Assembly: GCA_963799845.1 (NCBI GenBank)
Contig: CAWCYI010000006.1
Coordinates: 1,687,266-1,751,265, forward strand
From: an uncultured Nitrososphaerota archaeon
Lineage (GTDB): Archaea; Thermoproteota; Nitrososphaeria; Nitrososphaerales; CADDZS01
Length of the DNA: 64,000 nucleotides
Direction of reading: 5' to 3'
How positions within the stretch are numbered: position 1 is the first letter of the stretch; every line of letters begins with the position of its first letter. This document shows positions 28,522-53,954 of this stretch, in pieces. Made by a program: the position numbers and the translations under genes. The notes below the pieces were generated by a model, which worked only from the letters and a program-made list of their open reading frames with translations, ran no database searches and had not been told where the DNA came from.

Positions 28522-29469
28522 GTGAACGTTCTGATAACCGGTGGAACTGGTTTTATCGGATCTCACGTCGCTCGTGAATTTGTTCTCTCTGGGCACAACG
28601 TTACGCTTTTTGATCTTCAGCCCGAAACAGTATTGGTAAACGATCTTCTGGAGCGAGTGGGAATCGTCAGAGGGGACATCCGAAACCTGAACGAGATTAT
28701 CCTGTCGTGTAAGGAGTACGAGATTGATAGCATAATTCACCTTGCATACTTGTTTACCAGGCCCTCGCAACAAAATCCTATGCTAGCGACCAATGTGAAT
28801 ATCCTGGGAACATTGAATGTTTTCGAATCTTTGAGATTACTTGATCTAAAGCGAGTTGTTTGGGCTAGTTCCAACTCAGTCTACGGTCGTAGTTTGAGAT
28901 ACAATGCGTCCAAGGCCCTTATCGAGAATGATCCAGTTAGTCCGTCTACCGTTTACGGTGCTTGCAAGGCATACAACGAATTCATTGCTGACTCGTATTG
29001 TCGAGAGTTTGGCTTAAGCATCGTGGGGCTGAGAATCTGTGCAGTTCCGTATGGTCTAGGAATGTCGAGAAGAAAGGATAGCGCGGTAAGCTTCCTTTTC
29101 GATTTATTCGACCATGGAATCAGGGGAGAGCCATGTTTAATCTCAGCTGCAGATTTGGTCATGCAATGGCAGTATGTCAAAGACCTTGCTGGACTTTTCA
29201 AAAAGGCTTGTACCCAAAACATAGTTCACCACACTCTATTCAACACAGGTGGTGAATTTGCCTCGTTGAGGCAAGTCGCCGCTATTGTGCAGGAAACTAC
29301 CGGGGCCCAGATTCGATATTCTAGTGAAATACCGGAGTTCGCGGACGAGGTTTTTAACATCGATTATTCTTTGATCAAAGAGGAGTTTGGGTATATTCCT
29401 ACTTACGACATCAAGCAAGGTGTGAAAGATTTTGTCAATATGACCTTGCAATGGGGGAGACAATCTTGA
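28522..29469 (+). CDS. NAD-dependent epimerase/dehydratase (extended SDR)
   Basis: TGGTGFIG, ASSNSVYG, YGACK. Confidence 0.92.
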   Translation: MNVLITGGTGFIGSHVAREFVLSGHNVTLFDLQPETVLVNDLLERVGIVRGDIRNLNEIILSCKEYEIDSIIHLAYLFTRPSQQNPMLATNVNILGTLNVFESLRLLDLKRVVWASSNSVYGRSLRYNASKALIENDPVSPSTVYGACKAYNEFIADSYCREFGLSIVGLRICAVPYGLGMSRRKDSAVSFLFDLFDHGIRGEPCLISAADLVMQWQYVKDLAGLFKKACTQNIVHHTLFNTGGEFASLRQVAAIVQETTGAQIRYSSEIPEFADEVFNIDYSLIKEEFGYIPTYDIKQGVKDFVNMTLQWGRQS

Positions 29470-29506
29470 TTTTTCTTCATCGAACATTAAATGTGGTTAG
29501 GGCAGA

Positions 29507-30562
29507 ATGAAAGACGTTGCAACTGTTACGGGAGCCGTACCAGCAAACGAGCTTGGAATCACCCTCCCACACGAACACATTGTCATCAATCTGAATGAAG
29601 CAAAATATACTCTTGGTAAGAAAAAGCAAGGTGACCTTAAAATATCGATGGAGAACATGTGGAGACTACACCGAGATCCAAATGCCTCCATGGATAACTT
29701 GAAGATCGACGAATTAAAGACCAGTGTGAATGAGCTTCGAGAGTTCCGTCAAATGGGTGGCGGGACTGTTGTTGATCTAACTCCCTCAGAACTCGGGAGA
29801 GATCTTCTCAAGATTAAACGAATTTCCCTCTTAACGAAAGTTAGAATTATTGTTTCAACAGGATGGTACGTCCGAAGCACTCACCCCAACATAGTTAGAA
29901 AAATGCCATTAAGATGGCTCAAAGAAAAAATGGTAAAGGAGATAGAAGAAGGCATAGAGGATTCTGGGATAAAGGCGGGTGTAATAGGCGAAATTGGATG
30001 TAGTGAACCAGTTCCATTTCACAAAGACGAGGAGAAAGTTCTCACAGCTGCAGCGATGGCTCAGTCAGCCTCAGGAGTTCCTCTGACGGTTCACCCAGTC
30101 TTGTACGAATCCCGAACTGGAAAGAGATCTCTTCCGGGATTTTCTTACCTCAAGATATTGGAGAATAACGGTGCAGCACTAGACAAATTCTATCTGAGTC
30201 ATTCCGACTTTACTTGCTCTAGTTTAGATTATCACAGAAAACTAATGGACAAAGGGATAATTCTATCTTACGATTGCTTTGGTAAGGAATTGTATTATGA
30301 AAGTTGGTTTCCGGGAGCCAGAGGTCGTACCGATTGGGAGAGAATACAATCTGTCGTCGAATTGTGTAATGAAGGTTACGATGGTCAAATCTTGCTTTCT
30401 CAAGATATTTGTTTCAAAATTGGGTTGAAAAAATACGGCGGGTTTGGTTATTCGCACATTCTTCGTGACATCGTACCCGAATTGATTAGGCAGGGCGTAA
30501 AGAAAAAGCAGGTTCGCAAAATGCTCGTGGAAAACCCAGAGCGCCTTTTCGGACGCTCTTAG
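29507..30562 (+). CDS. Phosphotriesterase-related (PTER-like) amidohydrolase
   Basis: LGITLPHEH, GVIGEIG, LTVHP, LSHSD, LSQDI, YGGFGYSHI. Confidence 0.9.
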   Translation: MKDVATVTGAVPANELGITLPHEHIVINLNEAKYTLGKKKQGDLKISMENMWRLHRDPNASMDNLKIDELKTSVNELREFRQMGGGTVVDLTPSELGRDLLKIKRISLLTKVRIIVSTGWYVRSTHPNIVRKMPLRWLKEKMVKEIEEGIEDSGIKAGVIGEIGCSEPVPFHKDEEKVLTAAAMAQSASGVPLTVHPVLYESRTGKRSLPGFSYLKILENNGAALDKFYLSHSDFTCSSLDYHRKLMDKGIILSYDCFGKELYYESWFPGARGRTDWERIQSVVELCNEGYDGQILLSQDICFKIGLKKYGGFGYSHILRDIVPELIRQGVKKKQVRKMLVENPERLFGRS

Positions 30563-30613
30563 CTTTAACGAGGTATTCAGATGCTCTACTTCGTTAATTC
30601 TAATGGAACGATG

Positions 30614-32344
30614 TCATAGTTCGCCGCCCCATATCCCGAGAGAGAAAACGGACATTTGATCTTTGATAGCTTCCTTAGTAGCGAAAGCCAGTTTCACATC
30701 GATTAGGGCTGGTTTACCGGCAGATAGGGCTTCCTTAATCGTGTCGCGAATCTCTGATGTCTTCTCAACACTCTTTCCCCAGCAGCCAAATCCCTGAGCA
30801 ACTTTGGCAAAGTCCACATTCGTAAAGTGTATCTCGTGATCGTAGCTGTTCCATAGCACCTCTTCAATTAATGAATTGCCCGCGAGTGTTTGGTTATTCA
30901 GTACAAAGACGACGACATCAAGTCCATATCTCAAAGCGGTTTCCAATTCTTGGACTTGTCCGACCATAAATCCACCGTCGCCATCAAAGCAGAAAACTTT
31001 CTTTTGTGGGGCGGCAAGTTTTGCTCCGAGCGCAAGTGGAAGCGCCATCCCTAGAGCGCCAAGACCCCTAGGCTGGAGAAAACATCTACCAGCACTTAGA
31101 GCTTGAAGATGGCTCGCAGCCCATGCCGAGCATTGGGACGCGTCAGATGCGACTATTGAATTGTGGTCGACGAACTCTTTCATAACATTGTAAAGATCAA
31201 CAGATCGAATAGTCGATCCACTAAATCTTGTGATCGACTCGTCGTTGGCTCTTTGCCACTCTTGTCTTAGTTTCACAATTTGGGCTGCCCTCGAATCTTT
31301 AGCTTGACTCTGTTTCTTCCCTTGAACCGATATGACATCACACAAAGCTCTCAGACCCAATTTCGCATCGGAGACAATTCCGATCTCTGTTTTGTAGTTC
31401 CTGCCGATTTCCGTAGGATCAATATCAATGTGAATGATGCGCGAGCTTTGAGTTGGAAACCTCCACCCGATAGTTGACATCTCGTCTGTTCTCGTCCCAA
31501 CGAGAAGCACGAGGTCTGATTCTTGAATAATCTTATTTGCGACTTTACCATGCCCTAAAGGTCCGCTGACGTATGCACCTACGGGGCCGAGGCTTAGGGG
31601 ATGGCTTTCTAGAAAGGCGCCTTTACCCATTATTGTGGTCGCGACAGGAATTAGAAGGAGTTCCGCAAGATCTTTGAGCTCGACCATCGCTTGCGACGTT
31701 AGCACACCTCCGCCCGCTATGATGCATGGCCTCTCTGCAGCCAAAAGGGCTCGCGCCGCTTCGGAAACCCTGGATTGTTCCGGCGCGATCCTAATGGCGG
31801 GAACCTTATTGAAATCAGACTCGACGATCACTTTATCGGAAGATTCTTCGGACAAGGCTTCGGGACGGATGTTTAAAACAACGGGTCCCGGTCTCCCAGA
31901 TGTTGCAACTCTGAAAGCCAAGCGGACAGTTTCAGACATTTTATCGGGAGACATAACGTCAATAACGAGCTTGGATATAGGCCTGAAAAGCTCCACTTGC
32001 TCGACGTCCTGGGCAGCGTTCTTCCTTTCTAAAGACTCAGGAATTCCACCAGTGATCGCAATCACCGGTATGGATGATTTCCATGCCTCGGCGATGCCTG
32101 TGACCAAATTTGTTGCGCCGGCGCCATGGTCTCCAAAACATACTGAAGGTTTGGACGATACTTGGGAATATCCTGTTGCCATCAGAGCACCCATTGTCTC
32201 TTGGTGAATAGTGATGGGTTTTATCGCCCGCTTGTTCTTCTCTACAGCTTCGTAGAAAGTTTCTGGCGAATCCATTCCGAATACGTACTTTACTCCATAA
32301 CCTACGAACGTATCGTGGAGTACATCTGCTCCTGTCTTAGGCAT
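30614..32344 (-). CDS. ThDP-dependent enzyme (acetolactate-synthase-like superfamily)
   Basis: HQE, GAGATN, SGRPGPV, HIDIDPTEIG, GDGG...NN ThDP motif. No regulatory subunit nearby. Confidence 0.9.
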   Translation of the reverse strand: MPKTGADVLHDTFVGYGVKYVFGMDSPETFYEAVEKNKRAIKPITIHQETMGALMATGYSQVSSKPSVCFGDHGAGATNLVTGIAEAWKSSIPVIAITGGIPESLERKNAAQDVEQVELFRPISKLVIDVMSPDKMSETVRLAFRVATSGRPGPVVLNIRPEALSEESSDKVIVESDFNKVPAIRIAPEQSRVSEAARALLAAERPCIIAGGGVLTSQAMVELKDLAELLLIPVATTIMGKGAFLESHPLSLGPVGAYVSGPLGHGKVANKIIQESDLVLLVGTRTDEMSTIGWRFPTQSSRIIHIDIDPTEIGRNYKTEIGIVSDAKLGLRALCDVISVQGKKQSQAKDSRAAQIVKLRQEWQRANDESITRFSGSTIRSVDLYNVMKEFVDHNSIVASDASQCSAWAASHLQALSAGRCFLQPRGLGALGMALPLALGAKLAAPQKKVFCFDGDGGFMVGQVQELETALRYGLDVVVFVLNNQTLAGNSLIEEVLWNSYDHEIHFTNVDFAKVAQGFGCWGKSVEKTSEIRDTIKEALSAGKPALIDVKLAFATKEAIKDQMSVFSLGIWGGEL

Positions 32345-32398
32345 GATTTCCTCATCCGCCAGTTTGCAGTACTTAAACTTCCTCTAATTGGCCAGATG

Positions 32399-32779
32399 TT
32401 AGTCGACTGAAATTTCAAGCTCCTTCTTTGTTTTTGAAGGAGCTATCACCGCCACTAATCTTGCAACAGAGGTTTTTGATAGATTCTTGATCGTCGTGGT
32501 AATGGACATTGGGATGAAGACGGAATCACCTGGCATTAGTTTTCTCCTCTTCCTCTTCCACTGAATTTGCACTTTCCCATTCAATACGAAAAGAGCCTCG
32601 TCCTTGTCTGGATAACAATCTGTAGACACTGCACTAGCATCTAAGCTCACGATTGATAGCATGAATCTATGCGAATCCGTTGTCGGACCTGTTATCAGAC
32701 GCTTGGACCAAAAGCCCTTAGCAAGCTCCCTTGATACTACGTCTTTTGAACTAACGATTCTGAGTTCTCTTGAAACCAA
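32399..32779 (-). CDS. Cupin-domain protein
   Basis: DEALFVLNG, LMPGDSVFIP; the usual metal-binding His residues appear absent. Confidence 0.75.
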   Translation of the reverse strand: MVSRELRIVSSKDVVSRELAKGFWSKRLITGPTTDSHRFMLSIVSLDASAVSTDCYPDKDEALFVLNGKVQIQWKRKRRKLMPGDSVFIPMSITTTIKNLSKTSVARLVAVIAPSKTKKELEISVD

Positions 32780-32866
32780 AAAAGCTATATCCTATTTCTC
32801 TCCGTCCGATTCAAGTTATTCTAATTCGTAGTGTTTGTCGAGGTGACTAGCATGGGAGTCTCATTG

Positions 32867-35161
32867 CTAGTACATGGTCGCGAAATAGTACCCGGTCGGC
32901 TGCAAAGGAAGGGACGGATTGTAAAAGAATCCATGAATATTAGACGTCATGACGTAGAAGAATTCAGGATTTAGTGTCCACTGATACATCACTATTTGGT
33001 TGGCTAGAGAATTCATTTCGTTGGAAATAGAGACGACGCCTGAAACATTGTTTGCAGCACTCACTTTCTGTAACTCTGACCATAGTTGAGACATTTGAGT
33101 CAAGTTGAAGTTGTTGAAAGAAGTGAAGATTTGTCCCGGAGGGAACATCGGGCCGATATAGTCAAGCACCCATGGATAGTCTGGCAACAAGGTTATGAAC
33201 CCCCAATAGGTTTCTCCGGTGACTTGTAATGTAAAGAGTTGACCAAAGGGAACCGGGACAACCGAGACAGACAATCCCATGTTGTATGTTGAGCTGATAT
33301 TGTTCACAACGGTCGCCATCTGCAAAGCAATACCTCCATCGACGGAATCACCTGTTGGATAATTGAGGAAGATTGTCTGCGATACTGGATGGCTGCACTG
33401 ACCTGCAGAATTCAGAGTAGAGCAGCCAAATGTATTGTTAAAGTAACCCTGTGGTGCAGCTGTTCCGTTCCGGAATGTGAATTGGGTTAAGGGCTGTTCC
33501 ATCGCATTGAGAAGGAGATCTTGGGTAGCTGTCAGATTGTAGGAATACCTAGTGGACAAGGAAGAGTTGTATGCTCCGACAGGAGGCTCGCCTGGCGGTA
33601 CCATTTCCGTTGCTACCTTTCCAAGACCATTGTTGAAATCTGTATTTATTTCTGACATGTTCACAGAATCAGCGAACGCGAGTCGGAAACGGAGGTCGGA
33701 AAAAGGTTGAAACTGGAAATATGACCCTGTGTTACTGTTAGTTACATTAGTGTCGAATGAGTCGAGATTGGTTGCGTAAGCTGTGTACGGTCCATAAAGA
33801 CTAACTCCAGGTATAACCGACACCAGCTGCCCAGTGTTGAGCCAAGTTGATCGATTAGCAACATCGTAAAGATTCTCGGGAGTAACATCGATTGTTACTG
33901 GTTGTCCTGATTTCGCCCCGTTTTCAAGGTCAATTTCTCTTGTGCTTTCCTGAGGAACATAATTGATATTTATCGTAGGAATCTGTGGTGTTATTTTGCT
34001 TCCACCCAGGTATTGATACGCGCCCCCCCAATAGTTAGGGTTAGATTGTAGTATGATGTTACCAGTCGCCTGTGTGACTTTTTCTATCATGTAGGGGCCG
34101 GTTCCTGCCATGGAACCTTCATAGGATCCATCGAGATATGTCGTGGCGCATCCCTTGGGAGTTATGCCGGCATTGCAAGTTGCAACCTCATCATAGAAAT
34201 ATTGGTCGATAATCGCGGTAGCATTACTGCCAGACGGTGTGGGATCTGGCAACGTATAGCCATTACTAGATTGACTCCATAATTGAATGTCATGCTGCAT
34301 CACGTAATCAGGCGCCAGCAATCCTGTGATTGGATTAGCTAGCAAATATTGCAAGGCTGGATTAGGAACCTGAATGTTAAGCGTGAAAGTCAACGGGCCA
34401 GTAATTTGAACAAAGTTCTGAGCAAGAACTTGATTAGCCCAGCTTTGGGAGTAAGATTGTGCACAGCAAAGGGTCGAGCTAAGGCTCGTATTTTCAAGTT
34501 GTTGAATGATCCAAGCAAGTTGAGTTGCATGCCCTACAGGAGAACTGGCGTCAATTATTAGCAGCCTGTTTAAGGAGAAATAGACTGCCGTTGAATTCAA
34601 TGCCTCGCCATCGGCAAACTTGATTCCACTTCTTAAAGTAAAATTAGCAGTCTTACCATCTGGCGAGATCGTATAATTCTGAGCAAGCCACGGAACTATC
34701 TGGGTACCACTGGTGCCATTGTACCATAACAGAGGCTCATAGACATTCGTGATGATTGTTCCATCAAATGGAAAGTCTTCAACACTAGGATCGATATAGA
34801 CAATAGTATTAGTTGTGTCCCAAGTCAACGATTGCGGGACTGTTCCAGTCGACTGTGAAGTCGTCGACGAACTCGATACACTACTCGAGGAAGTTTGTGA
34901 TACAGTGCTCGAGGAAGAGCTACTAGCGGTAGAAACACTACTTGAACTTGAGCTCGCACTCGAAGAAATCGAACTGGATGAACTGCTTACCGTACTAGAT
35001 GTCTGGGTCGATGATGATGAGGTGGACGATGTCTTTATACTCAGTGCGGCATATCCTCCTATAACTAGAACAATGATTATGACTAAGACAATCACAATTG
35101 TAGTTGACCTCGCTAGACCGGAACTAGATCGCGAAATAGTGTGCAAGTTGTTGTCCTGCAA
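32867..35161 (-). CDS. ABC transporter substrate-binding protein, family 5
   Basis: N-terminal anchor plus Ser/Thr linker, NVYEPLL, PWLAQNYTISPDG, FTLRSGIKFADG, GTGPY, PFSDLRFRLAF. Confidence 0.9.
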   Translation of the reverse strand: MQDNNLHTISRSSSGLARSTTIVIVLVIIIVLVIGGYAALSIKTSSTSSSSTQTSSTVSSSSSSISSSASSSSSSVSTASSSSSSTVSQTSSSSVSSSSTTSQSTGTVPQSLTWDTTNTIVYIDPSVEDFPFDGTIITNVYEPLLWYNGTSGTQIVPWLAQNYTISPDGKTANFTLRSGIKFADGEALNSTAVYFSLNRLLIIDASSPVGHATQLAWIIQQLENTSLSSTLCCAQSYSQSWANQVLAQNFVQITGPLTFTLNIQVPNPALQYLLANPITGLLAPDYVMQHDIQLWSQSSNGYTLPDPTPSGSNATAIIDQYFYDEVATCNAGITPKGCATTYLDGSYEGSMAGTGPYMIEKVTQATGNIILQSNPNYWGGAYQYLGGSKITPQIPTININYVPQESTREIDLENGAKSGQPVTIDVTPENLYDVANRSTWLNTGQLVSVIPGVSLYGPYTAYATNLDSFDTNVTNSNTGSYFQFQPFSDLRFRLAFADSVNMSEINTDFNNGLGKVATEMVPPGEPPVGAYNSSLSTRYSYNLTATQDLLLNAMEQPLTQFTFRNGTAAPQGYFNNTFGCSTLNSAGQCSHPVSQTIFLNYPTGDSVDGGIALQMATVVNNISSTYNMGLSVSVVPVPFGQLFTLQVTGETYWGFITLLPDYPWVLDYIGPMFPPGQIFTSFNNFNLTQMSQLWSELQKVSAANNVSGVVSISNEMNSLANQIVMYQWTLNPEFFYVMTSNIHGFFYNPSLPLQPTGYYFATMY

Positions 35162-35291
35162 CCTAAGCCGCTTAATATAAGGATTTTTTGAGGGTGCAAG
35201 CGTGCTGTGAAGAAATCGTCTGTGGATACCAACCCATGCGAATTTCTTCCTTCGCGTTTATTCATTTTACAAAAGTCAAAAAACACGATTG

Positions 35292-36338
35292 CTACGGCGT
35301 TAATACCACCCTAATGGGGTTTCCATCTTTTTCGCGAAGAATGCGGAAACCTTCGTTAACCTCGTCAAGGGGAAGTCTGTTTGTTATCATTCGCTTGAGA
35401 TTGATTTTTCTTGTCGAAAGAAGCGATAATATTCTAGGCAAATATGGTCTTAGTTGTCCAAAACAAGCATAGATTGTGAGTTCATTCCAAAGGAGTTGCC
35501 TAATCCCTACCTTGAATTCTTCGTTGCTTCCACCGACGACTCCGACTTTGCCTCCTCTTCTTACGCTCCGAATCGCGGCCTCGATTGTTGCACGCCCCCC
35601 AACCATCTCGATAGACGAATCCACTCCTCGGCCAGAAGTCAGGCTCTTGATTCTGATTGCTGGATCGGTCTCGCGAGCATTAATTAGAACATCCGCCCCT
35701 AACTCTTTAGCGATATTCAATTTCTCATCTAGGACATCGACTGCAATGACGTAAGCGCCGCGCAATTTTGCCAATTGGACGGCATTCATTCCCAGGCCGC
35801 CTATCCCAAACAACGCAACCGAGTCTCCTGGTTGCACGCTAAGGCGTTCCAAAGCGTGGAATGGAGTTGCAAGGGAGTCTGTAAGTATGGCAGCCTCATC
35901 GAAATCAATTTCTGAAGAGAATTTGTAGACGTTTTCCTTTCTAACACAAACATATTCTTCAAAGCCTCCGTCGACGCTTTCTCCGTATGATTCTCTCTTC
36001 TCGCATAAAGTGTACGCCCCTATAGTGCAATAATAACATCTGCCACAGGAAATCGCAGAATCTACTAGCACGCGATCACCGATTTGGACATCCGAGACAT
36101 CATTTCCAACTTCCTCGATGGTACCACTTATTTCATGACCTAACACGATAGGAAGTTTCATGTTGCTACCTTCTACTCCTGGAATTTGAATTAATTCGCC
36201 ATCTTGAATGTGCAAGTCCGTCCCACATATCCCCGCTGCCTTCACTCTGATCAGTACCTCACTCGATCCTACTTTCGGTACAGGTATCTGCTCAATCTTT
36301 AGAGGACTTGCCGGCTCATGAAGTCTTGCTGCTTTCAT
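35292..36338 (-). CDS. Zn-dependent alcohol dehydrogenase (MDR)
   Basis: GICGTD, LGHEISG, CGRCYYC...C, GIGGLG. Confidence 0.93.
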   Translation of the reverse strand: MKAARLHEPASPLKIEQIPVPKVGSSEVLIRVKAAGICGTDLHIQDGELIQIPGVEGSNMKLPIVLGHEISGTIEEVGNDVSDVQIGDRVLVDSAISCGRCYYCTIGAYTLCEKRESYGESVDGGFEEYVCVRKENVYKFSSEIDFDEAAILTDSLATPFHALERLSVQPGDSVALFGIGGLGMNAVQLAKLRGAYVIAVDVLDEKLNIAKELGADVLINARETDPAIRIKSLTSGRGVDSSIEMVGGRATIEAAIRSVRRGGKVGVVGGSNEEFKVGIRQLLWNELTIYACFGQLRPYLPRILSLLSTRKINLKRMITNRLPLDEVNEGFRILREKDGNPIRVVLTP

Positions 36339-36461
36339 GAGAACGGTCGAAACTCACCAAGTTGAATAGCTTTTCTCCGTTTGAATGAAATATTTCTTGG
36401 AAGGTATTGCCCTTGAGGAAAACATGAAATTCGATAATCGCGAGAGGAACTTTAGTTCAAA

Positions 36462-38539: not shown

Positions 38540-38590
38540 CAAGCTGTTACACACACTTCGCTTACAAATGGGGATGGCTGATTTCTGTTT

Positions 38591-45724: not shown

Positions 45725-46069
45725 ATGGTTAAGCCAGAACTTGAGTTCTTCGATGTAGATCAGATCGAATGGCAGCCGATTGCCGAATCTCCAGGGACGT
45801 GGGAAAGAATACTAAGTAAAGACCCTAACACACAGTCGTACACCCGAATGCTTCGATTTAACCCAAAAGCAACGACCAAGGACACACTTTCTCATGATTT
45901 TTGGGAAGAAGTATACATTGTGAGTGGAAGCCTCAAGGACCTGGGGAAAGACAAGTTGTTCACAAAGGGAATGTATGCTTGTCGACCACCTGGAATGAAG
46001 CATGGTCCTTACCACTCTCCAGACGGCTGCGTGACAGTTGAAATGCGGTACTATCCAGAGAGATATTAA
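45725..46069 (+). CDS. ChrR-like / DUF4437-type cupin
   Basis: HDFWEEVYIVSG, YACRPPGMKHGP. Confidence 0.8.
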   Translation: MVKPELEFFDVDQIEWQPIAESPGTWERILSKDPNTQSYTRMLRFNPKATTKDTLSHDFWEEVYIVSGSLKDLGKDKLFTKGMYACRPPGMKHGPYHSPDGCVTVEMRYYPERY

Positions 46070-46728
46070 TGAAACACGAATTTGAAGTAGAAACTCCTGA
46101 TGGATTAACCAGACTCCAGTTTGAGGTAATGCGTCTCGTCGCGGCAGGCTACACCGGCAGGAACAGAAACGATGTCTTGCGCCACATCGAAGAGTTGAGC
46201 AAACTTGGAGTGAAACCACCGGATAAGGTTCCCGCAAAATATGTTCTATCCCCTGAACAACTGACGACTGACAAAAAGATCTGGGTTCATGGAGACTCGA
46301 CTAGTGGGGAAGTCGAGTACGTAATTCTGATCGGATCTGAAATCTACATAGGTGTTGGAAGTGATCACACCGACAGGGAGATCGAAAAAAGCGACGTACT
46401 AGAGTCGAAGAGAGTATGTCCAAAGGTGATGGGAGCTAGGATTTGGCGGCTCTCTGACTTGGAGGGACATTGGGATAGTCTCGTCCTCAGCTCTTGGATT
46501 CAAGAAAAGGGAGAAGAGATTCCCTACCAGCGTTCGGATCTGACGTTGATGATGTTGCCGCATGATATCCTTAGAGAGATGGACGAGAAAGAACAAGGCA
46601 CAGTGATTTTCTCTGGTACTCCAGTTCTATTGCGAGAAACAACATACGCCGCCCATTTCAAGGAGAGATTACATGATCCTATCCTTCGTCGACTTATTGA
46701 TCATGAATATGATGTGGAAGTAAGATAG
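46069..46728 (+). CDS. DUF2848-family protein (FAH-like fold)
   Basis: AGYTGRN...HIEEL, TSGEVE, VGSDHTDR, SKRVCPK. Confidence 0.85.
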   Translation: MKHEFEVETPDGLTRLQFEVMRLVAAGYTGRNRNDVLRHIEELSKLGVKPPDKVPAKYVLSPEQLTTDKKIWVHGDSTSGEVEYVILIGSEIYIGVGSDHTDREIEKSDVLESKRVCPKVMGARIWRLSDLEGHWDSLVLSSWIQEKGEEIPYQRSDLTLMMLPHDILREMDEKEQGTVIFSGTPVLLRETTYAAHFKERLHDPILRRLIDHEYDVEVR

Positions 46729-46911: not shown

Positions 46912-48306
46912 TTATCCATTCTTTTCCGCAGATCGATTGAGCGAACCACCACTGTATTTTGAGAATATGGCCTCTACTTCTTCCAAGGCGACCTGGGACA
47001 CTACACCGACAGGCGGGTAGTTCTGCAGGAGAGGTTTTGCCGTGGCATCGATGCCAACCTTCGAAGTGATACCTTCCTCGCTGCAGGAGGGGTCAAGATC
47101 TGAACCCCGAGAATTACGGATGACCAAGATGTCTCTGTCAGGCTGAACCCTGGTTGCCATCGCCCATAGAACTTGCCTCGTATCCTGAACATCAATATCG
47201 TCGTCAACTACAACTACTTGTTTCATATAAAGGTCGGAAGTGAAGGCCGCGAGCAGAGCATTTATCCCCTGACCTTGGGCTCGCTTCTTGATAGAAATAA
47301 AGCACGTAAGCCCGGTTGGTACATGCACGTCCGTGATCGATGGGACGGCTGCTCTAACTCCTTTGAAAATATTCGCCTCCATCGGGATTGCACCCATGAG
47401 TAGATGCTCGTAATGAGATCCACTACAAATCGTTTGATATATGGCATCGTTTCTGTGAGTTATAGCCTTCACTCGAACAACTGGTTTCTTGGCAGCGTCC
47501 ACCATGTAACCGGCAAACTCACAGAATGGTCCCTCATCATCGAGTTCGTCTGGGAGTATCTCCCCCTCGATTACCAATTCTGAACTAGCCGGCACTTCGA
47601 TGTTTACGGTCTTGGCGGGAACTATCTCCAACGATTTCCCAATCAAGCCTCCAATAATATCGTATTCATCGACGCCGAAAGCACCAGGGTATAGAGAGCC
47701 GAGTGAAATACCAGGATGATTGCCTAATACGACACAGATTTCAAGAGATCTCCCTAGATCCTTCGCAGCCCTATGGCACTCCCACAAATGCTTACCGACC
47801 GTCATATGGATGCACATCTTATTCCTGTCTTTGATCATCAGCCGGTTGTAACTTAGGTTCCTTATCCCAGTCTTCGGGTGCTTTGCGATCACCAGCCCCG
47901 CGGTGATGTAAGGTCCGCCCTCATTTTGATGAAAAAAGATCTCGGGTAAATCAAAGAGATTTACATCATCTCCTTGGATGATGCACTCGTGGATCGGGGA
48001 ATCAGAGACTATGGTTGGTTTATGCGGGTTATCCAGGGCAGAAAGGTACCTGTTGAAGAGTTCGTCCCTGCTAACTCCGAGAGATCTCGCTATCCTTTTT
48101 CTGGAGGCACAGACATTAACCACACACGGAAACTTACTTCCGCGAACATTTTTGAATAGAATTATGGGAGATTTGCGCGAACGCTCAAATCGGTCTACTA
48201 CTGCCATGATTTGGTATTTAGGATCAATTTCTTCGTTCACGACAATGTAGTCCTCATTATTTGGACTAGCATTCTGAACTGCTTCCAAGTACTCTCTAAG
48301 GCTCAT
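46912..48306 (-). CDS. UbiD-family (prFMN-dependent) decarboxylase
   Basis: GGPYITAG, RNLSYNR, EGPFCEFAGY, VVVVDDDID, WAMATR, LDPS, KVGIDAT. Confidence 0.93.
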   Translation of the reverse strand: MSLREYLEAVQNASPNNEDYIVVNEEIDPKYQIMAVVDRFERSRKSPIILFKNVRGSKFPCVVNVCASRKRIARSLGVSRDELFNRYLSALDNPHKPTIVSDSPIHECIIQGDDVNLFDLPEIFFHQNEGGPYITAGLVIAKHPKTGIRNLSYNRLMIKDRNKMCIHMTVGKHLWECHRAAKDLGRSLEICVVLGNHPGISLGSLYPGAFGVDEYDIIGGLIGKSLEIVPAKTVNIEVPASSELVIEGEILPDELDDEGPFCEFAGYMVDAAKKPVVRVKAITHRNDAIYQTICSGSHYEHLLMGAIPMEANIFKGVRAAVPSITDVHVPTGLTCFISIKKRAQGQGINALLAAFTSDLYMKQVVVVDDDIDVQDTRQVLWAMATRVQPDRDILVIRNSRGSDLDPSCSEEGITSKVGIDATAKPLLQNYPPVGVVSQVALEEVEAIFSKYSGGSLNRSAEKNG

Positions 48307-48607
48307 ATTAAGCTAGAAAGACGACAAGGGCTTATCTATTTAAGGAGTAAAATTTCGTTGTTCTATTCAATTCTTTGCTCCTTGAGATTGGAAGCCATAC
48401 TTTTGTGCATGGCAAACGTAAATGACAGGAAATTACTTGGCGTCAAGAATGCTCGGTACGAAGCGTGGGGAACCTAACAATACCCAATTATCAAAATATA
48501 TCTCGCAAAATAATTTTGTCTTCGACAGGTCAAATTGATACAATCGAGCTTCCGCTAACAAGAAGAAAATGAAGAAAAATTCCTTTCGGCACGATGATTA
48601 ATGAATC

Positions 48608-49396
48608 TCAGGTACTGAGCCTATATGATGTACTTTTTGTCTGTGAGAGTACGGGCATTGATTCTCGAACTGTATTGAGTCGATTTTTGTCGAGATGTGC
48701 GATCTCCAATCTTTCGCCGCCACCGAGATCGAGATCTGTTATCCCATCGGGTCCTATGAGAGAGCTTCGTCCAATGAACTGGGGAGCGCTATTTCCTACT
48801 CCGACGACGTATTCTGTGTTTTCTAAAGCACGCGCGCGTAGAAATGTCAACCATACCTCTTCTTTTGCGAAACCTCTGTACCACCCTGCAGGCACTAGTA
48901 GCACTTCAGAACCGTTGAGGGCCAAAAGGCGGCTCAATTCGGGAAACCGGATATCGTAACATATGATAAGACCAAAATTCCAACCTTCGAGATTAAATGA
49001 GACTGCTTCATTCCCAGGCTTGAAGACGTCCCCTTCCCTCACACCGAGAGCGTTGAAGAGATTTATCTTTCTGTATCGTCCATTCGTCTTACCTTTCTCA
49101 ATGAAAACGGCAGTGTCGAATAGATTGCCCTTATCCTCTTCGTATATTGGCAAAATTGCAGAAACATTAGTTGAAGCGGATGCGTCTATAACAGAACCGA
49201 CAAAATCTCCCGTTATTGGCTCTGCAAGTTTCTCGACGTATTCTCGAGGAGCCCCGTCCTTGTTAACTCCCATACAATATTCAGGGAAGACTACAAGGTC
49301 TGCAGCACCTTCGCATTTCTTAATGACGCTTACTATCTTGGCAAGGTTGTCTTGTTTTGAAGGTATGCAATTCATTTGACTTAGGGCGACTTTCAA
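48608..49396 (-). CDS. Carbon-nitrogen hydrolase (Nit/omega-amidase-like)
   Basis: E-K-C triad in FPEY, YRKINLF, ICYDIRFPE; RARALEN. Confidence 0.92.
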   Translation of the reverse strand: MKVALSQMNCIPSKQDNLAKIVSVIKKCEGAADLVVFPEYCMGVNKDGAPREYVEKLAEPITGDFVGSVIDASASTNVSAILPIYEEDKGNLFDTAVFIEKGKTNGRYRKINLFNALGVREGDVFKPGNEAVSFNLEGWNFGLIICYDIRFPELSRLLALNGSEVLLVPAGWYRGFAKEEVWLTFLRARALENTEYVVGVGNSAPQFIGRSSLIGPDGITDLDLGGGERLEIAHLDKNRLNTVRESMPVLSQTKSTSYRLST

Positions 49397-49822
49397 ATTT
49401 CCTTCTTCCTTTTACGGTTCGAACAAACTATGAATTGGGTATTAAAAGTAAGTTGTGGGTACGCTGCAGATTTGAGTCTTGACTATCTGAAGGGATAGAA
49501 CTTCGAAAAATCGCTTTGAATCTGACTGAGAGAATCGAGTCGTCCCCGTAAATGAAGTATGATTTACATTCATATTCCCTGAATATTTAGGGCTCGAGGT
49601 AGTGAAAATTCCATCAAACATCAGTCAAGCATGGGTGATCTTTTGATATGTTCTTGGATTGACAGGAATGTAGAATTGCCTTCAGGAATCTTATCTCCCC
49701 CGGAATGTTCAATGGACTCGGCAAACAATCTAGCTCCTGGCGGGGATCTCTCTATAAGATCCGACTCGGGCTGGAAAGATTATAGTACTTCTAGAATAAG
49801 TTAGAAATGAAGAGGATAATTC

Positions 49823-50824
49823 TTGGCAATCAGTTTGATGCTTAGCGGGAATGGGAACTTTGACTCCAGGAAAATTTCAGATCTTTCAAGAAATGTCGAG
49901 AAAGTAGGATTAGATTGCTTGTGGTTCGGTGAAACTACTTCTAGAGACGCTTCTGTCCAAGCGACAGTGGCCGCCATCGCAACAGAAAAAATCAAAATAG
50001 GAACCTCCATAGTGAACATTTTCACAAGATCACCTGGTCAATTGGCGATGATGGGCGAAACGATAAACGAACTTTCATCGGGCCGTTTCACCCTTGGTCT
50101 AGGAGTAAGCTCTACACCAATAATTCAAGGTTGGCACGGGATGAGCTTCAATCAGCCTAATCGAAGGATGGAGGAAGTCGCTCAACTGGTGAAGTGTTAC
50201 TTTTCGGGGGAGAGGTTCAGTAAAGAAGGCAAGTTTTTTGCTCCCCGAAACGCGAGACTCCGAATCGGCCCACCACCAAGACTTGCTTTGGCTGCTCTCG
50301 GAGATCGAATGATCTTGAGGGCATCGAGATTGGCGGACAAAATCATACTGAATTTTCGTCCGGCGGATAGAATCAATGATGTCAGGAGCAAAGTGTCAGA
50401 ATATGTAAGCACCCTAGGTAAAGAGAAACCTCAACTTTCAGTCATGCTATATTTTGTTTTGGACGAAGGTGATCAAACCGGTATCGAAGTAGCCAGGGAG
50501 CTAATAAATTTCTACATGTATTCCGACTCTTATTGCAAACTTTTCACAAGTTTGGGATTTTCCTCTGAGGTGAATGCTGCTTCACGAGCGATTGCGAAAG
50601 GGGTTGCAACAGAGGCTAGAAAAAACATCTCTGAGAACATGATTGAAAAACTTCTCGTTGTTGGTGATATGAAAAAATTAATGGATCGAGCAAATGCGTG
50701 TCTTCAAAACGGCGCTGACGAAGTATTGCTAGTTCCTTCTCCATTCGGAAGTTACGAGAATTACATCAAACATATAGTTGCAGAGTATAGAAGTAAGAGT
50801 AATGAAAGTTACAATAACGCCTAA
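49823..50824 (+). CDS. LLM-class oxidoreductase
   Basis: WFGE, IGTSIVNIFTRSP, GRFTLGLG, LAALGDRM. Confidence 0.88.
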   Translation: MAISLMLSGNGNFDSRKISDLSRNVEKVGLDCLWFGETTSRDASVQATVAAIATEKIKIGTSIVNIFTRSPGQLAMMGETINELSSGRFTLGLGVSSTPIIQGWHGMSFNQPNRRMEEVAQLVKCYFSGERFSKEGKFFAPRNARLRIGPPPRLALAALGDRMILRASRLADKIILNFRPADRINDVRSKVSEYVSTLGKEKPQLSVMLYFVLDEGDQTGIEVARELINFYMYSDSYCKLFTSLGFSSEVNAASRAIAKGVATEARKNISENMIEKLLVVGDMKKLMDRANACLQNGADEVLLVPSPFGSYENYIKHIVAEYRSKSNESYNNA

Positions 50825-51009
50825 ATCGAATTAGGAGCTAATCAAAGCTCCGCTACAAGTTTGAATTGGTTAGGTGAGTTAGTTTGGAGCGTTTCTCTGT
50901 AGGAATAAGAAAACAAAACACTGAGATGATGTAGCGATAGAATATTGAGTTTGAGAAATAAGGTAAACCCGCATAGCTTAAATTGAATATTTTTCTCGGC
51001 ATCTTTTCC

Positions 51010-52146
51010 ATGGAGAATAGTAAATGGAATGAAGCCATAGACAGAATCATGACTAGAATAGACAATACTGTTGCATCACAACTAGATTACTTCCCGCATT
51101 ATGCTGACCCTACGACTGGAATATGGACAACGACACCTAATGGGGATTGGACCGGCGGATTCTGGATTGGACTGCTCTGGCTCGCGCACAAGTATACCCT
51201 GGATCCGAAGTATGTAAGATCAGCAGAATATTGGCTTGAGAAACTTCGTAAACGAATCAATTCACAGACAGTCTTTCGCGGATTCTTGTTTTATTATGGT
51301 GGTGCTATTGCAGAAATATTGTTTGCAAATACTAAAGCTAGAGAAATCGCCCTACTGGGAGCGGAGGGACTTTGTAAGCTATACAACGAGAAAGCTAAAC
51401 TGATACCATTGGGTGCCGAGGCTGAAGAAGCCAGTCATGTGGGACTAGCGGAGACGAATGTTGATTGCGTGATGCTGATAGCACTCCTTTCTTGGGCGTC
51501 GGAAAAGACAGGGAATCAGAAACTGCGAGAAATGGGAGTTCAGAATGCTAGGAGTCACGTACGACTATGCGTTCGGGATGACGGATCAGTTTGTCAATCC
51601 GCGTCTTTCGACACTAACACTGGGAGATTCGTCGCCAGATACACCCACAAGGGATTCTCGGATGATAGCACGTGGTCCAGAGCACAGGCTTGGGGCATGC
51701 TCGGATATTCACTCGCAGCCGCGAGCGCTCCCCACGAGGAAGAGTTTCTGAAAGTAGCGATTAAGGTTTCAGACTGGTGGATAGATCACGTTCCAGAAGA
51801 TAAGATTGCATTCTGGGATTTTGACGATCCAAAAGTCCCCTTGGTTGAAAGAGATACCTCAGCAACAGCCATTGCCACAAGTTCTTTGCTGAAGCTTTCA
51901 AAATTGGTAAAGAACTCGCAAAGGCAAAAATACATTCATGCCGCGGAAGAAACTTTGGAAAATCTTGTGAATCATCATATGACTCCTCTACATGAGAATG
52001 AATCTAGATCTGGCGGGATGCTTCTCCACGGTTGCTACAACAAGAAAATCAAATTAGCGACGAATAACGAACTTGTTTGGGGCGACTACTTTTTTCTAGA
52101 AGGTCTACTCGATCTAAATGGATCGTTTGGTGAGCGCATAATCTAA
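51010..52146 (+). CDS. GH88-family (unsaturated glucuronyl hydrolase-like) protein with a divergent active site
   Basis: DWTGGFW, STWSRAQAWG, WDFD, RDTSATAI, WGDYFFLE. Confidence 0.88.
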   Translation: MENSKWNEAIDRIMTRIDNTVASQLDYFPHYADPTTGIWTTTPNGDWTGGFWIGLLWLAHKYTLDPKYVRSAEYWLEKLRKRINSQTVFRGFLFYYGGAIAEILFANTKAREIALLGAEGLCKLYNEKAKLIPLGAEAEEASHVGLAETNVDCVMLIALLSWASEKTGNQKLREMGVQNARSHVRLCVRDDGSVCQSASFDTNTGRFVARYTHKGFSDDSTWSRAQAWGMLGYSLAAASAPHEEEFLKVAIKVSDWWIDHVPEDKIAFWDFDDPKVPLVERDTSATAIATSSLLKLSKLVKNSQRQKYIHAAEETLENLVNHHMTPLHENESRSGGMLLHGCYNKKIKLATNNELVWGDYFFLEGLLDLNGSFGERII

Positions 52147-52256
52147 TCCCAAATTCAAAAGCAAAAATTTCTCAACTTTTCTTGGGCATCCCCTAAAACA
52201 ATCCAATTAACCAGTTCTGAACCTACAGAAAACCAACCTAACTTTCCTTGTGTTAC

Positions 52257-53954
52257 CTATGTCCGTGGCGGACCAGCGTCAACCACCGCTCCATTGGAAT
52301 ACTTTCCGACGAGCTTTCCATAAACGTTCAGCCAGCTTCGTCCACCCACCCAATTTCGTCGAAACTTTGCATGCTTTCTTCGATTGTTGATCTCGCTTTT
52401 ACTCACCATTAAGTTCAGGGTGCATTCGTCAACATCTATCTTGATTTCGTCGCCCGTGGCTGCGTAGGCTAGGGGACCATCCTCGGCTGCCTCTGGCATC
52501 ACTTGTCCGACAACGAGACCGTGGTTCAGACCTGAAATTTCTCCGTCTGTTACAACACCAACCTCTTCTGAAAGACCCGAGCCGGACAAAGATGCAATGA
52601 AGTTGGCTGCAAAGACGGTTCCCGGCCCTCCTTTGGGACCCAGATTGCGGAGTATTACAACGGACCCAGCTTTGATGAAACCTTTTTCCAATGATTTGAG
52701 GGCTTCTTCTTCATCATTAAAAACGAGCCCTCTCCCATCGAACTTTCTCATAGACTCAGGAACCGCGGAGACCTTAACAAGCGCTCCTTCCGGTGCGAGT
52801 GTCCCACGTAAGATCCGGATACCAGCTTCTTTTGCCACAGGATTGTCGTACGTGCCAACAACCTTCGTGGTTCTAGTTCTAAACTGACCAAGATTTTCTT
52901 TAACTCGATTTCCAGAGACTGTAATAGAATTGAGATAGAGCTTTTCACGGAGACCACTCATCACTGAACGTGTTCCACCTGCTCTTTCAAGATCCTCTAT
53001 TCGATAATGACCATTGGGCCTGATTCTGGTGAGGAGAGGGATTTGATCTTGATATTTTTCGAAAGTTGCCAAAATGTCTATCGCGACCTGAGCTTCCGTC
53101 GCTATTCCGCCCAGATGCCTAACCGCATTTAGTGAACCACCTATTGCCAAGTCGAGCATCACAGCGTTTTCGAAAGACTCGCGGGACATAATCATCCGAG
53201 GTGTTATTTTTCGTTCAATCAGCTTGAGTATCATCTGACTTGATTGGTAAGCGAACTCTCTGAGCTTCCTGCCTCCTGCCCAAATTGGGGTTGAACCTGG
53301 CAGCGACATCCCCAGTGCTTCCGAGATCATCTGCATCGTGTTCGCAGTTCCGAGTCCCGCACAAACACCAGTACTGCCGATGGCATTATCGCACATCTCG
53401 GCAAGATTACCCATCGAGATCCTCCCTGTGGCTTGAGCTCCAACTTGTTCGTAAACATCTTCGATGTCCACCTGTTTTCCTCCACATACGCCCGGACTCT
53501 GGTAGCCACAGGCTAATACTATAGCAGGAATGTCCAATCGACCCGCAGCCATTAGGTGTCCGGGAACGGTTTTGTCGCAACTCGATAGAAGTACCATGCC
53601 ATCTAACTGAGCTCCTTCCACCATTACCTCGATGTCGTTCACTAAGAGATCACGACTTGGAAGAAGATACCTTCCGTTGCGTCCAAACCCTGTTCCAAAG
53701 TCCATCGGAGCTATTGTTCTTATCTCGAAACCCACTCCGCCTGCATCTCGGATGCCCGCTTTCATAACACCGACGAGACGATCGAGATGAGCATAGCATG
53801 CACCGAGATCGCTCGAGCTATTAATTATCGCAATTTTGGGTTTCCTGAAATCTTCCTCTCCAATGCCGACTGACTTCCATTCAGCCCTTCTCACAGCCCA
53901 TCTTGTGGTTCCCTCTGGAAAATTACTCCGCAACGTTTTTTCTGGCGTTGTCAT
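52257..53954 (-). CDS. IlvD/Edd-family dihydroxy-acid or sugar-acid dehydratase
   Basis: CDKTVPG, CAGLGTANTM, GGSLN, LAPEGA, GPKGGPG, VTDG, PEAA. Start taken at MTTPEK. Confidence 0.9.
   Translation of the reverse strand: MTTPEKTLRSNFPEGTTRWAVRRAEWKSVGIGEEDFRKPKIAIINSSSDLGACYAHLDRLVGVMKAGIRDAGGVGFEIRTIAPMDFGTGFGRNGRYLLPSRDLLVNDIEVMVEGAQLDGMVLLSSCDKTVPGHLMAAGRLDIPAIVLACGYQSPGVCGGKQVDIEDVYEQVGAQATGRISMGNLAEMCDNAIGSTGVCAGLGTANTMQMISEALGMSLPGSTPIWAGGRKLREFAYQSSQMILKLIERKITPRMIMSRESFENAVMLDLAIGGSLNAVRHLGGIATEAQVAIDILATFEKYQDQIPLLTRIRPNGHYRIEDLERAGGTRSVMSGLREKLYLNSITVSGNRVKENLGQFRTRTTKVVGTYDNPVAKEAGIRILRGTLAPEGALVKVSAVPESMRKFDGRGLVFNDEEEALKSLEKGFIKAGSVVILRNLGPKGGPGTVFAANFIASLSGSGLSEEVGVVTDGEISGLNHGLVVGQVMPEAAEDGPLAYAATGDEIKIDVDECTLNLMVSKSEINNRRKHAKFRRNWVGGRSWLNVYGKLVGKYSNGAVVDAGPPRT

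Follow-up and report, generated by a model that had tools for sequence, protein, structure and literature searches.

An HmfA-clade molybdoenzyme in a conserved candidate heteroaromatic-acid gene module of an uncultured Nitrososphaerota archaeon

The DNA considered here (the window) is a 64-kb stretch from an uncultured Nitrososphaerota archaeon, cut from the very end of contig C6 in a genome of 4.6 Mb (9 contigs, 86.7% complete). A preliminary description, made from the sequence alone, had presented positions 28522-53954 as a single archaeal catabolic island for furan or other heteroaromatic carboxylates, built around a molybdenum (Mo) enzyme resembling HmfA. Every enzyme class that it named was found again in place by open reading frame (ORF) listing, Pfam and NCBIfam (table 1). 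The coherent conserved module, however, is only the portion from 39.5 to 48.3 kb, encoding a two-subunit coenzyme A (CoA) transferase, an aldehyde dehydrogenase (ALDH), the Mo hydroxylase large subunit, a Cupin_7 protein, a DUF2848 protein and a UbiD-family decarboxylase; a Nit hydrolase is tied to it only loosely. We hold, with even confidence for and against, that this core is a variant of the bacterial lower pathway for 2-furoate and 2,5-furandicarboxylic acid (FDCA), known as the hmf pathway.

Four of these genes form an operon on the minus strand, from 45467 to approximately 39546, in the order Mo large subunit, ALDH, CoA-transferase alpha and CoA-transferase beta (A and B below), with gaps of 185, 105 and 10 nt. 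As the window reads, ALDH is split into two ORFs, tblastn showing the frame change, and subunit B is truncated, its frame changing at about residue 177. Compared with contig G003:C122 from another species of the same genus (86% nucleotide identity, 92–96% at the protein level, 92% for subunit A), the window has two bases more in ALDH and one base fewer in subunit B. Logan contigs of three runs from one soil study (X1, X2 and X4) have an additional G behind 39797 and one base fewer at each of 42333 and 42346, and apart from these three indels they are identical to the window over the parts covered; run X3 lacks cover at all three positions and is uninformative on the indels. As these contigs compensate all three shifts and the G003 orthologs are uninterrupted (an intact ALDH of 491 aa at 92.5% identity), the frameshifts are consensus errors of the assembly and both genes are intact. 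A reading of ALDH and subunit B as pseudogenes was rejected, the short-read contigs restoring the frames. All three single-base errors lie within 3.3 kb of assembly, a density that suggests many more. Assembly errors may likewise account for other split genes in the genome, namely a UbiX (C6:1383358-1383868), an iron–sulfur (FeS) subunit (C6:1300034-1300262) and several Mo large subunits.

Table 1. Genes of the region in window coordinates; 'added' marks those absent from the preliminary description.
Feature	Coordinates	Strand	Basis and remarks
NAD epimerase	28522-29469		Pfam
Phosphotriesterase family (PTE/PTER)	29507-30562		Pfam; PTER-like
Thiamine diphosphate (ThDP) enzyme, acetolactate-synthase-like	30614-32344		Pfam; added
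Cupin	32399-32779		Pfam
Substrate-binding protein (SBP), SBP_bac_5	32867-35161		Pfam
Zinc-dependent alcohol dehydrogenase (Zn-ADH)	35292-36338		Pfam
PTE/PTER	36462-37529		Pfam; PTER-like
TrmB-family regulator	37696-38487	+	Pfam
ParB-like protein (ParB_N + HTH_ParB)	38591-39496	+	Pfam; added
CoA-transferase beta (GctB-like)	39546-40326	-	Pfam CoA_trans; ORF in the window 39766-40326, shortened by a 1-nt deletion near 39797
CoA-transferase alpha (GctA-like)	40337-41263	-	Pfam CoA_trans, 2e-26
ALDH, one gene	41369-42846	-	Pfam Aldedh on both pieces; 1-nt insertions at 42333 and 42346
Mo hydroxylase large subunit, HmfA clade	43032-45467	-	Pfam Ald_Xan_dh_C, MoCoBD_1, MoCoBD_2
Cupin_7 (ChrR-like)	45725-46069	+	Pfam, 3.4e-12; divergent from the Mo operon
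DUF2848, FAH fold	46069-46728	+	Pfam, 4e-59; start overlaps the Cupin_7 stop
UbiD-family (prenylated flavin mononucleotide) decarboxylase, HmfF-like	46912-48306	-	Pfam UbiD_N, UbiD, UbiD_C
Nit-family CN-hydrolase	48608-49396	-	Pfam CN_hydrolase, 6e-39; upstream of UbiD
F420-type luciferase-like (LLM) oxidoreductase	49823-50824		Pfam/NCBIfam; added
GH88 unsaturated glucuronyl hydrolase	50983-52146		1VD5, 1e-52, genuine; added
IlvD/Edd-type dehydratase	52257-53996		Dihydroxy-acid dehydratase 6OVT, 4.5e-100; added

The Mo large subunit, of 811 aa, is an orphan, with neither an FeS nor a flavin adenine dinucleotide (FAD) subunit in the window. It carries the a/b-hammerhead and the two Mo-cofactor-binding domains (Pfam E-values from 4e-28 to 3e-70), and its K765-G766-x-G768-E769 motif is invariant or nearly so across 25 homologs, E769 being presumably the catalytic glutamate. 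It scores below the cut-off of every NCBIfam model (the best, glyceraldehyde dehydrogenase alpha, gives 540 bits against a cut-off of 790), and its best solved relatives (phmmer, PDB) are CoxL (445 bits), QorL (390) and a KdhL-type enzyme (377). The best match among 40 relatives reaches 44% identity, and 400 further genomes of the class contain one ortholog (51%), on a 5-kb contig (G119:C96) without informative neighbours. Thousands of homologs at 50–66% identity are held in the protein database; among the 120 listed, the named organisms are Acidobacteriota, Deltaproteobacteria, Rokubacteria, Binatia, Methylomirabilis (NC10), Nitrospinota and Caldarchaeales, and 18 bear the name ‘2-furoyl-CoA dehydrogenase large subunit’ given by the Joint Genome Institute (JGI).

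In plasmids searched by tblastn, the best matches in Cupriavidus, Paraburkholderia, Dinoroseobacter and Rhizobium are textbook hmf clusters, arranged as UbiD-UbiX-(GMC oxidase)-...-large subunit-FAD-FeS-AMP ligase-enoyl-CoA hydratase-transporter, a layout that agrees with hmfABCDE/FGH as set out in PMC8091172 and PMC3223595. With the HmfA that the hmf cluster of C. necator NH9 encodes, the window protein shares 43% identity (665 bits). When C. necator HmfA is searched against the archaeal genome, the window gene scores 647 bits and the next paralog 426; for the Geobacillus protein the values are 791 and 565. The window gene is the reciprocal best hit of HmfA among approximately 17 paralogs. 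Two trees were built, a quick one of 67 rows (16 paralogs from the same genome) and a careful one of 37 rows (eight paralogs). Both recover a clade, 25 rows strong in the careful tree, which unites the window protein and database homologs with proteins of Caldarchaeum, two haloarchaeal plasmids and Geobacillus and with four canonical HmfA, all proteobacterial and from hmfABCDE(+FGH) clusters; the Shimodaira–Hasegawa-like likelihood-ratio test (SH-aLRT) gives it 100 in the quick tree, and ultrafast bootstrap (UFBoot)/SH-aLRT 100/100 in the careful one. All of the paralogs placed, and the best matches of the relatives, fall outside. An HmfA-like character of the subunit, as previously proposed, is thus supported by its sequence relationships.

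The two haloarchaeal members of the clade (Halorussus vallis plasmid, L120, and Natrinema versiforme pNVE500, L121) have large subunits 47–48% identical to that of the window, within clusters that read BenE-DUF6282-PaaI thioesterase-AMP ligase-FAD-FeS-large subunit-AMP ligase-XdhC. These clusters are candidate archaeal aroyl-CoA hydroxylases in their own right.

The neighbourhood of Mo-subunit homologs was compared in 81 loci (80 metagenomic ones and that of Ca. Caldarchaeum, L017), the homologs being 49–55% identical to the window protein. Counts cover every ORF of 80 aa or more; greedy ORF selection undercounts the subunits because GC-rich contigs hold long antisense ORFs. An FAD subunit was encoded in 70 of the 81 loci and an FeS subunit in 63, followed by AMP ligase (24), HmfE-type hydratase (17), UbiD (13), CoxG (nine), CoA-transferase A (nine) and B (seven), DUF2848 (seven), Zn-ADH (six), Cupin_7 (four), ThDP enzyme and LLM (two each), and GH88 and Nit (one each, the latter in L067). 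ALDH, PTE, IlvD-type, TrmB, ParB, SBP5, epimerase and cupin2 genes were found in none (0/81 each). DUF2848 and the HmfE-type hydratase are mutually exclusive, no locus encoding both.

Two gene orders recur: ligase-DUF2848-large subunit-CoxG-FAD-FeS-ABC transporter-CoA-transferase A-CoA-transferase B-(UbiD), and CoA-transferase A-CoA-transferase B-UbiD-UbiD2-...-large subunit-FAD-FeS. In the metagenomic loci, identities to the window proteins are 52–56% for CoA-transferase A, 66–69% for B, 46–49% for UbiD and 38–43% for DUF2848. Within 10 kb, the Caldarchaeum locus contains an orphan Mo ortholog (54%), a Cupin_7 homolog (55%) adjoining DUF2848 (44%), a UbiD (27%) and, approximately 10 kb from the Mo ortholog, a GH88 (48%). 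The closest Mo homologs (63–66%; P0002, on a 77,027-bp JGI contig) are not among the 80 metagenomic loci. For the Mo subunit (66%), UbiD (60%) and CoA-transferase A (58%), the best homologs are on JGI contigs of 77,027 bp, and contigs of 27,493 bp hold a UbiD (56%) and a CoA-transferase A (56%), the equal lengths suggesting a single contig in each case. A contig scan of genomes with the single Mo protein gave nine loci, one of which is an ortholog.

From these counts, co-occurrence elsewhere holds for the core (CoA-transferase, UbiD, DUF2848 and Cupin_7) and fails for the flanks (28522-37529 and 49823-53996), which are not conserved with the core and are not demonstrably part of its pathway. 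The proposal that the whole 25 kb serves one pathway accordingly finds no support. The system cannot be called specifically archaeal either, as the majority of homolog loci look bacterial and those with names belong to Acidobacteriota, Deltaproteobacteria, Rokubacteria and NC10.

The best solved relative of the UbiD protein is PtHmfF (6H6V, 298 bits, 1.2e-87), the next structure reaching 175 bits; PtHmfF is an FDCA decarboxylase, and PMC8988006 identifies 6H6V as PtHmfF. The protein passes the TIGR00148 cut-off (360.8 against 244.85), and its motif YEHLLMGAIP matches the EHLLLGAIP of HmfF from Cupriavidus, Paraburkholderia, Dinoroseobacter and Geobacillus. The histidine (H296/297 of PtHmfF) that PMC7976604 regards as key for specificity towards furans is kept, as E-H-L-L; the same column is also His in three of the seven other UbiD paralogs of the genome. 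Among 120 homologs listed, 11 have the JGI name ‘2,5-furandicarboxylate decarboxylase 1’. In the UbiD tree the protein belongs to a clade of its own with CoA-transferase-linked UbiDs (SH-aLRT 100). Its likeness to HmfF is seen in the best solved relative and in the histidine; in the tree, it lies outside the canonical HmfF clade. Seven further UbiD-family paralogs (eight in all) occur in the genome, noted especially at C6:1.20-1.31 Mb.

Both CoA-transferase subunits match GctAB of Acidaminococcus fermentans (1POI_A, 1.6e-40; 1POI_B, 4e-30), an enzyme that acts on C5 dicarboxylates. Subunit B keeps the catalytic glutamate of GctB (FEGG versus VESG), whereas AibB, a decarboxylase relative and not a transferase, has no Glu in this column. 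The enzyme is a genuine GctAB-type transferase, in line with the two-subunit CoA-transferase named earlier.

For DUF2848, a sequence search of the PDB gave no relative. With an AlphaFold2 model (pLDDT 79.7, pTM 0.80), Foldseek retrieved 42 PDB structures (E <= 1e-3); all of those displayed belong to the fumarylacetoacetate hydrolase (FAH) family, including Cg1458, KdaD, HpcE, fumarylpyruvate hydrolase, YisK, FAHD1 and 2-keto-3-deoxy-xylonate dehydratase (best E-value 2.9e-7, TM 0.63; probability 1.0 at a TM of about 0.6). In one Atlas cluster, PF01557 is annotated on 10% of the members. As modelled, DUF2848 is a FAH-fold protein. Residues E81, E83, D99, T101, D102 and R103 are invariant in seven sequences (SGExE...SDHTDR), an arrangement that resembles the metal/catalytic motif of FAH and, judged by motif, may correspond to its metal-binding Glu-x-Glu ... 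Asp triad. Substrates of FAH enzymes are enolisable 2-oxo or 1,3-dicarbonyl acids. In the furan route, C5 hydroxylation of furoyl-CoA is followed by tautomerisation, lactone opening (spontaneous or catalysed) and a second tautomerisation, steps to which the account in PMC3223595 assigns no gene. The Cupin_7 protein retrieved only the ChrR cupin 3O14 (2e-4) in the PDB search.

Of the 23 MoCoBD_1 matches in the genome, 17 lie in open frames of 600 aa or more, against only seven FeS and seven FAD subunits; approximately 10 of the ~17 intact large subunits have no small and medium pair of their own. The FeS and FAD subunits that match HmfB and HmfC best are those at C6:623-625 kb. The TrmB and ParB-like pair beside the core is also repeated: it occurs three times, in the window (37696-39496), at C6:1212222-1214061 and at C6:1287457-1289560, with ParB proteins 39–44% and TrmB proteins 25–32% identical across the three. 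Because the pair at both other loci adjoins paralogs of the Mo large subunit, UbiD and ALDH, it is likely to regulate the module, and TrmB/ParB may constitute an undescribed regulator pair for aromatic-acid clusters.

From these elements, of which the family and clade memberships, the conserved neighbourhood and the intactness of the genes are demonstrated, we infer a route, including its substrates, its sequence of reactions, its borrowing of electron-transfer subunits (FeS and FAD) and the part played by DUF2848. ALDH would oxidize a formyl-substituted heteroaromatic acid (formyl-furoate to FDCA), and the HmfF-like UbiD would remove one carboxyl from the resulting dicarboxylate (FDCA to 2-furoate). 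The GctAB-like transferase, in place of the ligase HmfD, would then form the aroyl-CoA (2-furoyl-CoA), of which the HmfA-clade Mo subunit would hydroxylate ring C5, borrowing FeS and FAD subunits from other loci of the genome. Enol, lactone and 2-oxo-acid intermediates would be processed by DUF2848, possibly helped by the cupin, instead of an HmfE-type hydratase, and the CoA-transferase would finally recycle CoA from the C5-dicarboxyl-CoA product, releasing 2-oxoglutarate. As far as sequence goes, the substrate may be a furan, a pyrrole, a thiophene or another ring.

Several observations weigh against this furan reading. The first concern the Mo subunit itself: proteobacterial HmfA sits on a long branch and has an unusual composition; phmmer gives 660–702 bits to proteobacterial HmfA and as much as 606–661 to sister-clade paralogs; and an identity of 43% to proteobacterial HmfA lies below the 45% cut-off used in PMC8091172. 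The exclusion of KdhL, NdhL, QorL and CoxL comes from the PDB phmmer scores of at most 445 bits and not from the trees. The clade is broad (43–66% identity), the subclade of the window has no characterized member, and substrates may differ within it; indeed, its haloarchaeal members adjoin BenE, a PaaI thioesterase and two ligases. Others concern missing partners. FeS (Fer2_2) and FAD (FAD_binding_5) subunits, so regularly encoded beside the homologs, were not found in the 64-kb window, the nearest lying at C6:1387 kb, and the genome has only seven of each for its ~17 intact large subunits. No HmfD-like ligase (AMP-binding ORF) was found in the window, the best match in the genome reaching 27% at C4:440-442 kb, and no HmfE-like hydratase, the best matches in the genome (31–33%) lying elsewhere on C4 and C6. 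The sole UbiX-like locus, mentioned above, is 300 kb away and reads as two frames, a split that is possibly an assembly error like the three in the operon. Finally, the UbiD tree places the protein outside the canonical HmfF clade and leaves the relation between the two clades unsettled, and three paralogs of the same genome score at least as high against GkHmfF.

The same enzyme logic (CoA activation, ring hydroxylation by a Mo enzyme and decarboxylation by UbiD) could serve another substrate, such as pyrrole-2-carboxylate, thiophene-2-carboxylate, a pyridine carboxylate or an acid of the benzoate/phthalate type, which we consider rather unlikely. In an N-heterocycle route, the Nit amidase and the PTER amidohydrolases would handle amide or lactam products, for example 2-oxoglutaramate. 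Nit lies directly upstream of UbiD, in L067 another such gene immediately precedes the Mo homolog, and two Nit-like genes occur in the paralogous locus at C6:1291-1293 kb; amidohydrolase-family proteins are neighbours in nine loci. The Nit protein of the window scores 185 bits against the NCBIfam model for deaminated-glutathione amidase, below its cut-off of 355, and the counts given above (Nit in one of the 81 loci, PTE in none) speak against this reading. Benzoate-type acids are brought to mind by the BenE transporter of the haloarchaeal clade members, and a CoA-transferase followed by UbiD mirrors the logic of phthaloyl-CoA decarboxylase; the window UbiD nevertheless scores only 77.5 bits against the latter. 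A pyrrole is disfavoured by the 108 bits obtained with HudA, the pyrrole-2-carboxylate decarboxylase, against 298 with PtHmfF, and by the Asn that HudA has at the position of the HmfF His, as given in PMC7976604. The breadth of the clade, with its close members uncharacterized, leaves room for other ring acids.

We find it improbable that the region mainly encodes a Weimberg/Dahms-type pathway, oxidizing sugar acids or uronates to 2-oxoglutarate, even though a candidate family for each Weimberg activity is available within the 25 kb. The SBP would serve uptake, GH88 the release of unsaturated uronates, Zn-ADH would be the sugar dehydrogenase and the PTER-like proteins lactonases; the IlvD/Edd-type protein would dehydrate the sugar acid, DUF2848 the 2-keto-3-deoxy acid, ALDH would act on 2-oxoglutarate semialdehyde, TrmB would be a sugar regulator and the Mo protein an aldehyde oxidoreductase. 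GH88 is genuine, TrmB regulators are typically sugar-responsive according to the Pfam description, KdaD and 2-keto-3-deoxy-xylonate dehydratase are among the best fold matches of DUF2848, and among NCBIfam models the Mo subunit scores best with glyceraldehyde dehydrogenase alpha. That model, however, is matched below its cut-off, and the trees group the subunit with HmfA; the IlvD-type protein is nearer to dihydroxy-acid dehydratases (339 bits) than to sugar-acid ones (234–244 bits). In other loci DUF2848 accompanies the Mo homolog, a ligase, the CoA-transferase and UbiD, and IlvD-type, PTE and ALDH genes were found in none of the 81; the CoA-transferase and UbiD would have no use in such a route.

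Uronates could also be connected with the furan reading. The result would be an energy-saving, ligase-free pathway for furan acids, in which a 2-oxoglutaryl-CoA:furoate (or FDCA) CoA-transferase would recycle the thioester and so stand in for HmfD as well as HmfE, DUF2848 would open or tautomerise the 5-hydroxy-furoyl lactone and, in the archaeal versions, unsaturated uronates released by GH88 would yield 5-formyl-2-furoate, then FDCA (by ALDH), furoate (by UbiD) and, via the Mo enzyme, 2-oxoglutarate. We regard this full scheme as a long shot. Its chemical premise exists, uronic and hexenuronic acids being dehydrated to 5-formyl-2-furancarboxylic acid, chemically and under harsh conditions, in PMC5137004 and PMC13473318, and both archaeal loci have a GH88 gene close to the module. 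The link that it would draw between flanks and core is speculative, and a literature search pairing ‘hexenuronic acid’ with ‘furoic acid’ found no paper.

We also find it improbable that unrelated accessory genes make up the region as a mosaic, its Mo subunit a non-functional orphan among many partnerless paralogs. In favour of this reading, genes switch strand along the region, insertion sequences (IS) abound in the genome, many of its large subunits are partnerless and conservation of the core does not extend to the flanks. Against it, the core genes are intact, catalytic motifs are kept, protein identity in another species of the genus is 92–96%, bacteria and distant archaea show the combination again, and in Caldarchaeum the ortholog is likewise an orphan and the Cupin_7-DUF2848 pair is preserved.

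The genes on either side of the core complete the picture of the region. Both PTE proteins are PTER-like (9EFA, 1e-50; 3K2G; Pmi1525). Complete genomes of the host order, presumably that of the ammonia-oxidizing archaea, number in the hundreds and measure 1.5–2.8 Mb, and the runs containing the window sequence are labelled soil metagenome. The left flank (4–24 kb) has nucleotide matches in all 12 genomes of the family compared and is near-continuous in G003 at 78–86%, whereas the sequence between 28.5 and 54 kb matches G003:C122 only, SBP paralogs aside; these limits fit the island boundaries drawn earlier. As the 12 genomes are 58–96% complete, the unmatched region is to be read as not found rather than absent. 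Its composition, also put forward earlier as a check, turned out only mildly atypical: GC is 45.1% against 47.4 ± 1.5% for the genome (25-kb windows), at the 7.5th percentile, and the tetranucleotide distance is within the top 10% of the genome. Scans of the region for tRNA genes, Rfam families and flanking repeats gave no border marker. The IS110 stub previously placed at its right end (53987-54277) is weak (Pfam E = 0.085, 13 bits); the mobile-element debris beyond it is real, in the form of a Cas1 fragment and an IS630-like element. Since the region is mostly unmatched in relatives and mildly atypical in composition, with unmarked borders and a weak IS110, it is a variable accessory region and not a demonstrable mobile element.

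The Cas1 fragment (61115-61642) matches over the C-terminal 80 residues only (Pfam 2.5e-8) and may be the remnant of a casposon or of a CRISPR locus. The genome carries 17 or more identical copies of the IS630-like element (62875-64000; HTH_33/HTH_32 and DDE_3), inside which contig C6 ends. Elsewhere in the window, a 1.65-kb repeated element (19324-20971) has two other copies with 100% identity, and a 586-bp one (4001-4586) at least three identical copies and diverged ones (84–98%). A repeat of approximately 400 bp (~25050-25470) has more than 20 diverged copies (75–90%) in the window genome (G000) and G003, and no Rfam or tRNA match. Beyond the region, an ORF of 390 aa (54797-55969) with a weak GH113-like match (E = 0.0027) has three paralogs in the window genome and is kept at 63–70% nucleotide identity in five family genomes.

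If the furan reading of the core is correct, the module would represent a second, widespread architecture of the furoyl-CoA type of pathway, spread among uncultured bacteria of soils and present in some archaea, would provide a first testable function for DUF2848, and would offer a CoA-recycling shortcut useful for engineering furan detoxification or FDCA production. Were the uronate scheme also true, a non-ammonia-oxidizing relative of the ammonia-oxidizing archaea would possess a salvage route from uronates through furans to the tricarboxylic acid cycle. In any case, approximately 17 intact Mo large subunits, eight UbiD genes and three TrmB/ParB-linked clusters point to broad heterotrophy on aromatic acids, in a lineage better known for its ammonia oxidizers.

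To our knowledge, bacteria and fungi are the only organisms in which the genetics of furan-acid catabolism has been described, and our literature searches found no report of furoyl-CoA dehydrogenase in archaea and no paper on DUF2848. The hmf clusters of Cupriavidus basilensis HMF14 were reportedly described by Koopman in 2010. The hmfABCDE/hmfFGH clusters for furfural and 5-hydroxymethylfurfural in Proteobacteria are treated in Wierckx 2011 (PMC3223595) and Donoso 2021 (PMC8091172), and hmfF appears in PMC13398701 only as a soil gene marker. PMC3223595 defines an hmf cluster operationally by homologs of HmfA, HmfD and HmfE near each other. The window has the HmfA homolog (at least 40% similarity) and neither HmfD nor HmfE in its vicinity; with HmfB, HmfC, HmfD and HmfE all lacking nearby, it is not an hmf cluster by the published definition.

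Like hmf clusters, the module has a Mo large subunit of the same 100/100 clade, a UbiD with the EHLL..G.IP motif, an ALDH (as in D. shibae pDSHI01) and, by implication, CoA-thioester chemistry. Unlike them, it lacks adjacent HmfB/HmfC, HmfD ligase, HmfE hydratase, HmfG/UbiX and HmfH oxidase, and has instead a GctAB-like CoA-transferase, a FAH-fold DUF2848 and a Cupin_7; its large subunit is shorter (811 aa versus ~1012 aa), its regulators are TrmB and ParB-like rather than LysR or AraC, and its host is an archaeon. The closest Mo homolog found in a cultured organism (49–50% identity, 896 phmmer bits) is that of Geobacillus kaustophilus HTA426 (pHTA426, L119), listed as a ‘preliminary’ furfural degrader in PMC3223595. 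It shares with the window a short large subunit (~810 aa) and a UbiD nearby; unlike the window, it has CoxG, FAD, FeS, two ligases, a hydratase and XdhC, and no CoA-transferase or DUF2848. With GctAB (1POI), the resemblance covers both subunits and the catalytic Glu of beta, but the context is a Mo hydroxylase and a UbiD in place of glutamate fermentation.

The same module as in the window is found in eight metagenomic loci (L039, L042, L046, L048, L049, L051, L106 and L112) and in Ca. Caldarchaeum (L017), with identities of 54–55% for the Mo subunit, 52–56% and 66–69% for CoA-transferase A and B, 46–49% for UbiD, 38–44% for DUF2848 and 39–55% for Cupin_7. The metagenomic contigs, unlike the window, also encode FAD, FeS, CoxG, a ligase and an ABC transporter, whereas the Caldarchaeum locus shares its orphan large subunit. 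The system thus has HmfA-clade and HmfF-like enzymes in common with hmf, has a CoA-transferase and a FAH-fold protein in place of the ligase and hydrolase, and is not confined to archaea.

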